Assembly: GCF_006345805.1 (NCBI RefSeq)
Contig: NC_042999.1
Span: 73,346,001-73,410,000 of the forward strand
Length of the DNA: 64,000 nucleotides
Reading direction: 5' to 3'
DNA from: Octopus sinensis
Taxonomy: Eukaryota
The position numbers were made by a program, and so were the translations under genes. Below are positions 30,582 through 54,182 of this stretch, one piece after another. Numbering within the stretch: the stretch's first letter is position 1; each line of letters begins with the position of its first letter. Below the pieces are notes generated by a model, which was not told where the DNA came from, made no database searches, and worked only from the letters and a program-made list of their open reading frames with translations.

Positions 30582-30584
30582 ATG
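30582..30584 (+). CDS. Prohormone coding exon 1 (initiator ATG only)
   Basis: agaATG|GTAAGT is a perfect donor directly after an ATG with A at -3. Phase 0 matches the exon 2 acceptor, whose signal-peptide frame has no Met of its own. Confidence 0.65.
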
Positions 30585-31732
30585 GTAAGTAAACTAATGG
30601 CGACCTCTGAGTGTCTCTTTTACTTTTACTTTCGCTATCTTCTTTCATTATCTATTTCTCTCTCTCTCTCTCTCTCTCTCTCCATCTCACTCCGTCTCTC
30701 TCTTACTCTTTCTCTCTCTCCCCTTCTCTCTCACACACACACGCTATATGCATACATACATACATGCAGACAGACTGACTGACAGACAAGCAGACAGACA
30801 TATACAAATACACACGCATAATATGAAAACATTTGCTTTGCTTCTTGTATATTCGAATGGATGTAAATATATTTATATGGGAGTGTTTATATGTACTTTT
30901 GGTATATAGTTTGGCACGTGTACAATATACAAGCACGCACACACACAAACATATATACTTACACACATAAACACATGCATACACACATATGTATACATAC
31001 GTATGCATACATATATAATATATATATATATATATATATATATGACAGTGTAAGTGTGCTTTATTAGTTTGGTGCTTTACTATGAATATATATATATATA
31101 TATATATATATATATATATATATATATATATATATATATATATATATATATATCAATTAAGTAACGAGATGGATTTCGTATTAAACTTTATTCTGTACAA
31201 CGTTCGTTTCGACCCAAAATATACCACGACTGCGAATGACAACAGGTAGCCTAAACTCTGCCACTTAAGCACACTAATCGACTTATATCTATTAGTCCAA
31301 AATATTATTATTTTTATTATCATCATCATTATTATTATTATTATTATTATTATTATTATTATTATTATTATTATTATATATATGAATATATATACACACA
31401 CAAATGCTTACACAAATGCAACATCAACAAAAAAATTAAGAAACATAACAAACACACACACACACGGATAACTACAGGTAGATTATGATATTCAACAACT
31501 GTGAATAACAGTTTAGTTACATCTAAAAGATTAGAAAATTAAAAACTATTTGATCCCAGTTCTTCAATATCAGTAAACAAACAGAATAGTAAAGGTATAC
31601 AAAATTGTTGCATTTGATCCTAATTAGTTCCGACAAACGATCAAAGTAGCCGTTATTCATCATTTAAATTAACTGTTTGATGAATAAAACAAAATGGCAA
31701 ACATTTAGTTTTTATTATTGTTAATTCGCTGA

Positions 31733-33065
31733 AAAGGTGGCGAGCTGGAAGAAACGTTAGCACGCCGGGCGAAATGCTTAGCGGTATTTCGTCTGCCGTT
31801 ACGTTCTGAGTTCAAATTCCGCCGAGGTCGGCTTTGCCTTTCATCCTTTCGGGGTCGATAAATTAAGTACCAGTTACGCACTGGGGTCGATGTAATCGAC
31901 TTAATCCGTTTGTCCCTCCTTGTTTGTCCTCTCTGTGGGTAGTAAAGAAATAGGTATTTTGTTCGTCTTTAATCACCCCCCACTAAATTGACTCATCCCC
32001 TTCCCCTAAATTGCTGGCCTTGTGCAAAAATTTGAAATCATTATCAATCTGCTGAAAGGCGGCAAACTGGCAGAATGGTTAGCACGCCGGGCGAAATGCT
32101 TTGCAGTATTTTCGTCCGCCGCTGCGTTCTGGGTTCAAATTCCGCCGAGGTCGACTTTGCCTTTCATCCTTTCGGGGTCGATAAATTAAGTACCAGTTAC
32201 GCACTGGGGTTGATGTAATCGACTTAATCCGTTTGTCTGTCCTTGTTTGCCCCCTCTGTGTTTAGCCCATTGTGGGTAGTAAAGAAATAGGTATTTTATC
32301 TGCCGTTACGTTCAAAGTTCAAATTCTGACAAGGTCGACTTTGCCTTTCATCCTTTTGGGGTCCATAAATTAAGTATCAGTGAAGCACTGATTTCGATGT
32401 AATTTACCTACCCCCTACACCAAATTTCAGGCCTTGTGACTAGAGTAGAAAGGATTATTAATCTACTGAAAGGCGGCGAGCTGGCAGAATTGTTAGCACG
32501 CCGGGCAAATGCTTAACGCCATTTTATCCGTCTTGACGTTCTGAATTCAAATTCCGCTCCTTTCCATCGACTAGTCCTCTCCAAAAAATTTCAGGCCTTA
32601 TGCCTATAGCAGAAATGATTATTAATCTGCTGGCAAAGGCAGCAAGCTAGCAGAATCGTTAGCACGCAGGACAAAATGCTAGGCGGCATTTCATCCGTCT
32701 TTATGTCCTGAGTTCAAATTCCGCCGAAGTCGACTTTTACTTTTATCCTTTCGAGGGTTGATAAAATTAGTATTAGTTGAGCAATGGGGTCGTATAATCG
32801 ACTTACTCCGATATTGCTGGCCTTGTACCAAAATTTGAAATCATTATTATTATTAAGCCGGCAGAATTGTTAGCACACCGGAAGAAAATGCTTAGCGACA
32901 TTTCGTCCGTCTTTATGTTCTGAGTTCAAATTCCGCCGTGGCCGACTTTACTTTTCATCCTTCCAGTAATCGATAAAATAAGTACCAGTTGAGTGCTACC
33001 GGGGTCGATGTAATCGTCTAACCTCCTCCCCACAAATTTCAGGCTTTGTCTTTATAGTAGAAAGA
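31733..33065 (+). mobile_element. Head-to-tail array of about five Meta-domain SINE copies in intron 1
   Basis: Units start at about 31733, 32055, 32469, 32635 and 32855 with the same head and Meta core as the 26590-28370 cluster. Confidence 0.85.
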
Positions 33066-51416: not shown

Positions 51417-51455
51417 GTCTTTAACGTTTCGAGCCTACGCTCTTCAACAGAAAGA
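51417..51455 (-). ncRNA. Degenerate minimal hammerhead motif; more decayed relative at 39651-39698
   Basis: Minus strand tcttt-CTGTTGA-a-gagc-gtag-gctc-GAAA-CGTT-aaaga. The core deviates from CUGANGA. Confidence 0.5.
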
Positions 51456-53950
51456 TACACAGAGAGAGAAAAACACAATATATATATATATATATATATA
51501 AGTATAGACATATATATACAAATATATACGTATATAGCATTATGTGCGTGTGTGTGTTTGTGCTTGTGTGTGTGTGTGTGTGTTTTATTTGTTTAGCACA
51601 TGACTTGATCAGAGGCAATATGTTAAAACTGAAACAATTTACATTATAGAAGGGTTATATGAGCCATTTAAATAAACAAACTCCTTTTTATGGACATTTC
51701 GCTTATTTCTTAATAACATTATCTGTTATGCAGACACTTTTGACACTTCATCGTAGATTAAACTTTCAAGACCTAAACAAAAAGTGCATAAAACGGTTTT
51801 TGTGTCTTCTTTAAAATGACTTTTCCGACACACACACACACACACACACACACACACACACACACACATACACACACAAACGCACACGCACACACACACA
51901 CACAAATACGAGCTCGATTGCTTTCCATATACTTTTCGTCTACGAAATCCCACTGAAAGTATTGGTAAACCTACGGCTGGGAAAAGTAGAAGACTGTACA
52001 GTAGTCCCAGCTACCGTACAGTGGGATCGAACTTGGAGCCACTTTGTTGCAAAGCGAACTTCTTAATCAGACGGCCAGCCATGCCGACACTTCATATGGT
52101 TTCGGATAGCATAACTGCACAGAATCACATGCATACGCATTCACATATACACACACAACATAGACACATTCATATATATCAAAACATATACACATACGCG
52201 CATGCGCATATCCACAAGGGTTCTTTTGTACAGTTTCACTGGAAATATTCTCTTTCTTAGTCAACAGTGTATTAAGGCGAAGTGGCAGAATTGTTAGAGC
52301 ATCCAACAGAATAGTTTGCTTTATTTGTTCCGTCTATCATCGCTCTAAGTTCAAATTTCGTTGAAGTCAACTCATCTTTTCATTCTTTTGGAGTTGATAA
52401 ATAAAGTATCAGGCTAAGGTGGTGGATTGGTGGAATTGTAAAGGATTTGTGTGAGTTCCGGCTCAGTGTCTTTTGAGTTCAAATCCCGTCTTCACTAACG
52501 GAAAAATAAAACACATCAGTTAAGAATTGCAACTGACAGGTACTATCAGCAATTGAAAAAAAAGGCACTTGAAACATGGTTTCTAGATTCGTTCAGAAGA
52601 TCAGCTGTGAATATGATGAAATGCTTGATCAAGAATACCCTCCATTTTGGGTTGAGATTTCCATATCAATTGTGTTACTGTTTTACCAACTTCTTAATGT
52701 ATCTTATTTTAAACAGAGGGCCTTATAATTTGTATACAACACCTCAGTTAATCCCAAATAGGTATTTGCCGATGTCAACCCAGTAGTGAGTGCTTATGTT
52801 TTACAATGAACACCTAATTTTAATAAGTACTCATCTGTTTATAAAGCAGCTTCTTCTTCATAGTATGAGTCAACGAAGGTGCCTTTACGTAGTTGCTTTA
52901 CCTGCTAGGAATAAGAGTCAAAATATTACACAAATTACACCCTACCGTCTTAGAAAATGAAGGGCGCTTTTGGATAACGTAATCCTGGACACACTATACA
53001 TAAAATGACGGAGGGGTCACGACTAGAACCGTTATGGTCAAAGGCCTGTTTGGTCAGATTTAAGCAAGGATTAAGCAACAATATACAATTTCAGTTATAT
53101 TTCTCAGTAAACTATTAAGCTATATTAAACGGCATATTTACCTTGAGTATTTATTCCGTGGTACTTAGCAGACACAGAGTTTCCTATAACATGATAACTA
53201 CTTAAAACACATGGCAGGTATAAATGAATTTGCAGTCATGATAATGCTATATCTGTAGATACAAAGAGCGGGGATGATTAAGTTAGTGTCTGGCAAAAAT
53301 TACGTTTCTTTACAGTCCAGCTAAGGATTAGTTTGCCTTTCCTCTTTCCTAATAATATACAACCTCCTCCACTCCAAACAAACAGTTCTCTCCATATGTT
53401 ACTGTAGTAAAACCAATATTTCTGTCAACAAAATGTTTTTACAGTTGTTTAATTCTAGATCCTCTCTGATGAAAGAAGCTGATGGTGAAAGTCGTTCTAG
53501 TTGTGAACATTTCATCTCATTTAGAACCACATTTCCTTTTAAGACAGTCAGATATTGTTTGGAGGAGATTTGGTTAGTATTTCCAGCTGGTCGGGTTATG
53601 ACGTAAAAGCTCCCTAGTTGGTTCGTGCCAGAGTTTCGATAACTCTCAAGGTAACAACGGCCTACATATTTCAAAATATAAGGTATCCATGTTGGGCATT
53701 TTTGCTCTTATTACTGCTGCAAGTAACATTTATTCAAAATACTGCATAGTATCAGTGTTACAATATGATGTTACGCTCATCAGGTAAAAGAAATCAATCT
53801 GCTTTACGTATAAATATCTTGTATGAGAAGTTGAGGAAATCCAATCTCCTTACTGTAGACCATCCAACTAACACGTTATGGCCTTTGTTTTAGAAAATAG
53901 TACCGCAAATTTGAGCTCATTATTATTTTTTCTTTCTCTTTGCTTTTTAG

Positions 53951-54182
53951 ATGCAATGATAATGTCGGTAAACGAAGTGGCTGGTATAAACGTGGAAGTT
54001 GGGACAAACGTGGAAGTTGGAATAAGAAAAGTGATGATCAAACCAAACGCGGCAGCTGGAACAAACGTTCGGATGAAGAGGACAGCAAACGAGGCAGCTG
54101 GAACAAACGACAAGAAACGGAAGACTTCTCTGAAGCAATGCTTAAGAAAGTCCTTAATGAAAACTATGGAGTCCACTTGTAA
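53951..54182 (+). CDS. Prohormone coding exon 3: last Cys, amidation signal and GSWN-type peptide repeats
   Basis: tttctttctctttgctttttAG| acceptor in phase 2 (TC+A = Ser). Reads CNDNV-GKR-SGWY-KR-GSWD-KR-GSWN-KK-SDDQT-KR-GSWN-KR-SDEEDS-KR-GSWN-KR-QETEDFSEAML-KK-VLNENYGVHL-stop. Confidence 0.93.

Follow-up and report, generated by a model that had tools for sequence, protein, structure and literature searches.

The window analysed here, i.e. the whole 64,000-nucleotide stretch of Octopus sinensis contig NC_042999.1, carries on its forward strand a three-exon gene that is real, spliced and transcribed. Joining 30582-30584, 48765-48952 and 53951-54182 gives a 423-nt frame encoding a 140-aa protein, with GTAAGT at both donors, a pyrimidine tract followed by AG at both acceptors, and introns in phases 0 and 2; frame and sequence confirm the exon number, protein length, splice sites, phases and intron lengths put forward in the original prediction. 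The features of the locus are as follows.

30473..30484, + strand: TATA box, from the sequence, with the transcript starting approximately 28 nt downstream
30505..30584, + strand: exon 1, with an Inr-like start (TCAGT), a 77-nt 5' UTR, the ATG and a phase-0 donor, from cDNA contigs
30585..48764, + strand: intron 1, 18,180 nt, GT-AG, from sequence and cDNA contigs
48765..48952, + strand: exon 2, with the remainder of the predicted signal peptide, seven of the eight mature-domain cysteines and a phase-2 donor, from sequence and cDNA contigs
ending at 48836, + strand: exon 2 portion of the predicted signal peptide, from the sequence
48837..53969, + strand: predicted 44-aa eight-cysteine peptide and, as amide donor, the Gly that follows it (residues 26-70 together), interrupted by intron 2
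48953..53950, + strand: intron 2, 4,998 nt, GT-AG, from sequence and cDNA contigs
53951..54182, + strand: coding part of exon 3, with Cys8, G-KR, tetrapeptides, acidic spacers, C-terminal peptide and stop, from the sequence
53976-53987, + strand: SGWY, in exon 3
53994-54005, + strand: GSWD (residues 79-82), in exon 3
54012-54023, 54051-54062 and 54093-54104, + strand: three copies of GSWN, in exon 3
54183..54456, + strand: 3' UTR, with AATAAA at 54413; a second AATAAA lies at 54642

Spliced contigs were found over both predicted junctions, 30584/48765 and 48952/53951, in four of four and three of four runs, respectively. At the first, the contig over exon 1 runs on into exon 2 (X1, X2, X3 and X5, from three studies); at the second, a mismatch-free contig over 48764-48952 runs on into the first letters of exon 3 (X1, X2 and X5, from two studies), the remaining run, X7, having no piece on exon 2 and being uninformative either way. 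None of the sequencing runs is recorded as RNA in the run listing; a SMART-type template-switch oligo precedes position 30508 in the X1 contig and 30505 in the X5 contig, and these contigs are therefore cDNA. The true first exon spans approximately 30505-30584, with the transcript start at 30505-30508, downstream of the TATA box, and its 5' UTR is free of ATG. Provided that the contigs are collinear, their lengths place the 3' ends at 54412-54456.

Hydropathy at the N-terminus of the encoded protein peaks at 2.7, and the cysteine domain, with a computed spacing of 3-6-7-0-5-4-6, is followed by three copies of GSWN and one of GSWD, all flanked by dibasic sites. An AlphaFold model of the domain (pLDDT 87.8) comprises two antiparallel helices at mature residues 4-15 and 21-33, the spacing of which suggests a disulfide ladder across both; the model of the full-length precursor is poor (pLDDT 54). 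Pfam returned no family at E<=1 for any of four proteins, and gave no backing to the UniRef names 'SMB' (P0001) and 'WAP domain' (P0003). Searching the PDB by sequence produced unrelated proteins for A1 (best E 0.086) and no matches for A2, Foldseek against the PDB found nothing at E<=0.001 with either model, a match to vanabin2 (E 5.7) being set aside, and the best ESM Atlas score, 0.81, was to neuropeptide-like clusters and under the reliable range. Cephalopod relatives were the only ones reached by the sequence searches, in which P0004 and P0005 were taken as cysteine-rich noise.

The original prediction described the gene as hidden and novel. It is not hidden, because RefSeq and GenBank already contain an identical 140-aa Octopus protein (P0007), annotated as uncharacterized, and the claim of novelty falls likewise, since orthologues from O. 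bimaculoides and O. vulgaris were listed in a 2019 mollusc neuropeptide dataset (PMC6425005), the O. vulgaris entry matching the window protein along its length. A GSWN precursor family was named in oyster in 2021 (PMC8398477), and a squid (Todarodes) orthologue, derived from brain RNA and containing six GSWN/GSWD copies, was called 'achatin-related' in 2023 (PMC10172372). Judged by sequence, the octopus gene is a member of this mollusc GSWN precursor family, so that gene and family were both already known; the gene ids are absent from the main texts searched and from the readable supplements of PMC9712504. Identifiers for the gene are LOC115209753 / Ocbimv22007633.

Orthologues were identified in 11 other molluscs, the non-cephalopod sequences being taken from paper supplements and compared by eye; chiton, mussel, solenogaster and pygmy-squid orthologues are among the sequences compared. 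Dibasic-flanked GSWN is present in all 12 sequences compared. The exact octopus cysteine spacing occurs in six of the 12 by a by-eye count (computed for two), chiton and Bathymodiolus having the same spacing as octopus. The predicted amidation of the cysteine peptide is not constant across the family, the Gly donor being present in 7/12 orthologues and missing in 5/12; in Argonauta, furthermore, one intact GSWN is left and the other repeats have decayed, and neither feature is therefore strictly required. A cephalopod-specific expansion of the tetrapeptides was considered and dropped, the solenogaster orthologue having at least seven copies, including GSWD.

Cragi-GSWN of oyster likewise consists of a signal peptide, an eight-cysteine N-terminal domain, Gly-KR and dibasic-flanked GSWN, and in the published oyster alignment all five of five species share the octopus eight-cysteine frame, with KR-GSWN-KR after it (PMC8398477). 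The oyster cysteine spacing is, however, 3-6-7-0-5-3-6, and oysters, scallop, Lottia and Aplysia have one tetrapeptide copy each, whereas octopus has four GSW(N/D) plus SGWY. After Cys3 these same molluscs have KR where octopus has a single Arg, and the octopus domain is therefore less clearly two-chain. The Todarodes precursor (PMC10172372) and the cephalopod entries of PMC6425005 are direct orthologues that share the leader, the cysteine spacing and the GSWN/GSWD repeats and have a similar C-terminal tail; they differ in copy number and spacers, SGWY occupying the first slot in octopus. Expression of the oyster gene was reported in visceral ganglia, with a rise at the spawning stage, and in the two of three supplement matches listed the oyster peptide detected by MS is the C-terminal 16-mer rather than GSWN or the cysteine peptide (PMC8398477). 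The searchable literature yielded no receptor or peptide-level function for the family.

We consider it probable, at roughly 0.85, that the octopus gene encodes a secreted precursor of the mollusc GSWN family that is cut at dibasic sites into a likely amidated eight-cysteine hairpin, four GSWN/GSWD tetrapeptides and SGWY, which would likely act as neuronal signals via receptors. The earlier proposal of a two-cargo neuropeptide precursor is in this respect supported by the architecture, by the orthologues and by published work. By analogy with standard prohormone biology, the signal peptide would be cleaved after Ala25, convertases would cut at KR and KK with subsequent trimming by carboxypeptidase, and the cysteine peptide would be amidated at Gly70; GSWN, GSWD and SGWY would thereby be released, likely to signal from neurons via receptors. 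Two paralogues on the same contig retain the cysteine domain and have no tetrapeptides, so the eight-cysteine hairpin is probably a second ligand, independent of the tetrapeptides. A third match in one paralogue search (G000:C8, E 5.2) proved to be simple-repeat sequence, and no cysteine exon lies at a weak match near 72,593,300. The family being known and poorly characterised, GSWN, GSWD, SGWY, the predicted 44-aa four-disulfide peptide and the two paralogues are specific candidate ligands for cephalopod receptor screens, and constitute a modest but testable deorphanisation lead.

An unlikely alternative is that the gene is a divergent achatin, its tetrapeptides carrying a D-residue at position 2 and targeting the achatin receptor; on this reading the cysteine domain would be an add-on. 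Achatin precursors (GFGD/GFAD/GFFD) do resemble the octopus protein in format, encoding multiple copies of non-amidated, Gly-initiated tetrapeptides that end in Asp or Asn between KR sites; moreover, the orthologues were grouped with achatin entries in the 2019 dataset, adjoining bivalve and solenogaster GFWD/GFWN precursors (PMC6425005), and the achatin-related name is the squid authors' own (PMC10172372). That dataset cluster, however, is known to include at least one spurious entry, in oyster achatin and GSWN are listed as two different genes (PMC8398477), and the true achatin of octopus is a distinct gene on another contig (G000:C6), encoding 13 copies of GFGD and no cysteine domain. Position 2, at which a D-residue is required for activation of the achatin receptor, is aromatic in achatins and Ser in the octopus tetrapeptides, and GFFD analogues with Ser as their second residue were not converted by the Aplysia isomerase. 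Achatin precursors lack a cysteine domain. Taken together, the evidence suggests that to call the gene 'achatin-related' is misleading.

It is less probable still, and in our view very unlikely, that the precursor delivers the cysteine-rich hairpin alone, as a secreted peptide of toxin-like or defensive function, the GSW repeats being spacers, a reading towards which the retention of the cysteine domain alone in the two paralogues and the decayed repeats of Argonauta both point. The sea-anemone toxin acrorhagin I (PDB 6UX5), a disulfide-stabilised helical hairpin, has approximately 45-50 residues, four disulfides and two antiparallel helices, much as predicted for the octopus hairpin, and was matched at Z 3.4 (34 residues aligned with rmsd 1.4 and 21% identity; rank 22 of 50). 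Many unrelated helical proteins tie with this match, however, none of the 48,161 chains compared by VIA-align attained Z 5 (best Z 4.1, to TPR-like helices), and there is no sequence-level match, leaving homology or toxicity unsupported; KR-GSWN-K is, in addition, found in 12/12 mollusc orthologues compared, including those of non-venomous oysters with ganglion expression. GGNamide is defined by a mature peptide ending in GGN-amide. The original assignment to a GGNamide- or CLCCY-type precursor deserves almost no credence: both are lophotrochozoan precursors with cysteines, but the octopus protein lacks a GGN motif, and the presumed CLCCY alignment (page 22 of the oyster supplement, assigned by page order, the page title being an image) lacks GSW, its C-terminal frame being 6-6-0-4-7-6-1. 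Oyster GGNamide and GSWN are, furthermore, different genes (PMC8398477), and the family is instead that of the mollusc GSWN precursors.

Within the GSWN reading, the single GSWD at residues 79-82 matches what we take to be Ocp-3, a brain peptide of Octopus minor with an excitatory action on the heart, of which Ocp-4, from the same source, is reportedly the D-Ser form; a text search of the literature gave no passage presenting Ocp-3 as GSWD. If the identity holds, the peptide would likely originate from this gene, and the tetrapeptides would be neurohormones that stimulate the heart; the locus would be linked to a peptide of measured cardiac activity and to an isomerisation of Ser not carried out by the characterised Aplysia isomerase. 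We advance only tentatively, with the odds leaning against it, the fuller proposal that this is the Ocp-3/Ocp-4 precursor, misfiled as achatin, and that it defines a separate tetrapeptide system, turned off rather than on by L-to-D conversion of Ser2; the hairpin might then be a co-released orphan hormone, its domain duplicated into the two tetrapeptide-free paralogues to form a small, unstudied cephalopod hormone family. In a genome search with the pattern KR-G-x-W-(N/D)-K, which is blind to GSWD with other basic flanks or split by an intron, KR-GSWD-K was encoded only at the GSWN precursor locus. That gene accounts for four of the 13 pattern matches; of the other nine, one is an isolated GSWN in an open frame of 10 codons, and eight do not have Ser at the corresponding position.

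The three exon segments of the original prediction (30582-30584, 48765-48952 and 53951-54182) are present as given and together encode the 140-aa protein; both donors read GTAAGT, the AG acceptors lie behind pyrimidine-rich tracts, and the introns measure 18,180 and 4,998 nt. Both predicted junctions were recovered in contigs from public sequencing runs: alignment to exon 1 gave the exon 1-exon 2 junction in all four runs (X1, X2, X3 and X5, from three studies), the contig pieces beginning at 30505-30524, reaching the donor and then reading into exon 2, and alignment to exon 2 gave the exon 2-exon 3 junction in three of four runs (X1, X2 and X5, but not X7), the aligned piece spanning 48764-48952 with no mismatches and its overhang being the start of exon 3. 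Two exon 1 contigs bear a template-switch oligo at the 5' end, which identifies those two as cDNA and sets the transcript start at 30505-30508, on the A of a TCAGT initiator with a TATA box about 28 nt upstream. Judged by the lengths of the contigs, and provided that these are collinear, the transcripts would end at 54412-54456, close to an AATAAA at 54413. The spliced contigs and the cDNA start therefore establish this gene model as real, not a chance join of segments. Within intron 1, a short high-copy repeat (48520-48605) draws hundreds of unrelated contigs.

The product was rightly read as a prohormone; its supposed novelty does not stand, the protein being already annotated and its family already described, and the guess that it belongs with GGNamide/CLCCY precursors fails. 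Searches with exon 2 retrieved an O. bimaculoides RefSeq protein of 140 aa with a single residue changed relative to the window protein; its cluster partner P0007 (XP_029634124.1, CAI9719516.1; Octopus sinensis and O. vulgaris, 'uncharacterized') matches the window protein at every residue. An oyster ganglion study describes a mollusc-specific 'GSWN' precursor in which a short GSWN peptide accompanies a cysteine-rich N-terminal part; expression of this precursor in visceral ganglia is weak, with higher levels at the spawning stage (PMC8398477). An alignment of five species in the study's supplement has the same eight-cysteine frame as octopus, followed by KR-GSWN-KR. A direct orthologue from squid brain, named 'achatin-related', is listed as induced by deep-ocean water (PMC10172372). 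Orthologues from O. bimaculoides (Ocbimv22007633), O. vulgaris, Idiosepius and Neomenia are grouped with achatin entries in one supplement file of PMC6425005, and those from a chiton and Bathymodiolus appear in a separate file; the main text of that paper makes no mention of GSW. Given these entries, protein and family are both in print. The interest left is that of a small orphan system offering concrete ligands to test.

Iwakoshi et al. are reported to have isolated in 2000, from Octopus minor brain, the heart-stimulating peptide GSWD (Ocp-3) and a much weaker form of it with D-Ser (Ocp-4), beside the GFGD pair. Searches of openly accessible literature yielded no passage with the Ocp-3 or Ocp-4 sequences. 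A genome-wide search for KR-G-x-W-(N/D)-K, a pattern that misses GSWD with other basic flanks or split by an intron, gave 13 matches (reversed control, 4): four in the studied gene, one an isolated GSWN within an open frame of 10 codons, and eight with no Ser codon at the second tetrapeptide position. By this search, KR-GSWD-K occurs in the studied gene only, which would make that gene the likely precursor of Ocp-3 if Ocp-3 is GSWD. GFGD is encoded by a separate gene on another contig:

G000:C6:43101674-43102104, + strand, achatin-type precursor with 13 copies of GFGD after a hydrophobic leader

This separate octopus gene, together with the separate oyster entries for GSWN and achatin (PMC8398477 supplement), argues against filing the window gene as achatin. 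The Aplysia isomerase is described as inactive on Ser in position 2 (PMC11277431), and the achatin receptor as requiring the D form (PMC10089201).

By standard prohormone rules, the leader would be cleaved after Ala25, and KR/KK cuts would release a 44-aa peptide (Gly70 as amide donor), SGWY, GSWD and three GSWN, along with three acidic spacers and a C-terminal decapeptide. AlphaFold, given a four-sequence alignment, models the cysteine domain with a mean pLDDT of 87.8 and helices at 4-15 and 21-33. From helix spacing, not from the coordinates, we infer that disulfides Cys1-Cys7, Cys2-Cys6 and Cys3-Cys4 would connect the helices and Cys5-Cys8 would anchor the tail. Fold searches with the predicted models found no significant relative; a match to acrorhagin I (Z 3.4, rmsd 1.4), described in PMC11896702 as a four-disulfide helical hairpin, serves as a lead only.

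Counted by eye, eight cysteines, an Arg two positions beyond Cys3 and one or more GSWN copies with dibasic flanks are common to all 12 orthologues compared; the octopus cysteine spacing (3-6-7-0-5-4-6) is matched exactly in six, and a Gly amide donor is present in seven. The site after Cys3 is dibasic in 7/12, with a single Arg in cephalopods and the chiton; since the conserved Arg ends helix 1 in the AlphaFold model, a cut there would make a two-chain hormone in the KR-bearing species. Tetrapeptide copies, likewise by eye, were as follows:

Seven non-cephalopod species: one each
Argonauta: one intact GSWN
Window protein: four, plus SGWY
Squids: five to six
Neomenia: at least seven

The Neomenia count indicates that tetrapeptide expansion is not restricted to cephalopods. 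In the Argonauta orthologue (P0002; 55% identity), either the basic flanks or the tetrapeptide sequence is gone from most repeats, and the amide Gly is absent.

Two further copies on the contig carrying the window were located by genome search with exon 2:

Paralogue B: G000:C3:73324667-73324860 and 73327375-73327465, + strand, about 20 kb upstream of the window
Paralogue C: G000:C3:72609610-72609798 and from about 72606580 downward, - strand, more divergent eight-cysteine peptide

Paralogue B (57% identity, E 1.6e-11) lies about 70 kb upstream of the studied gene on the same strand and is identical to the annotated hypothetical Octopus protein P0008, its eight-cysteine peptide ending in G-KR; a candidate first exon and a TATA-like site lie near 73,316,430. 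Paralogue C, about 785 kb upstream on the opposite strand, scored 31% identity and E 0.23 in the genome search and E 4e-8 in pairwise comparison, with eight of eight cysteines aligned; it differs at one residue from the hypothetical Octopus protein P0006 and has no amide donor. Both share the exon plan of the studied gene: the cysteine exon is entered in phase 0 and followed by a phase-2 intron, beyond which the following exon supplies the last cysteine. Neither contains GSW peptides, which suggests that the cysteine domain may have a role of its own.

Other elements in the window, with repeat families assigned by eye, comprise:

58301-62362, + strand, broken non-LTR retrotransposon reverse-transcriptase frames, some duplicated
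2562-3246, - strand, remnant like a mariner-type transposase
6599-8082, - strand, remnant like an RTE-type LINE
22994-23596, - strand, remnant like a GIY-YIG (Penelope-like) endonuclease
9275-9718 and 10097-10540, identical open frames of 147 codons each, offset by 822 nt

That the last two frames are identical indicates either tandem duplication in the recent past or a duplicate created in assembly.
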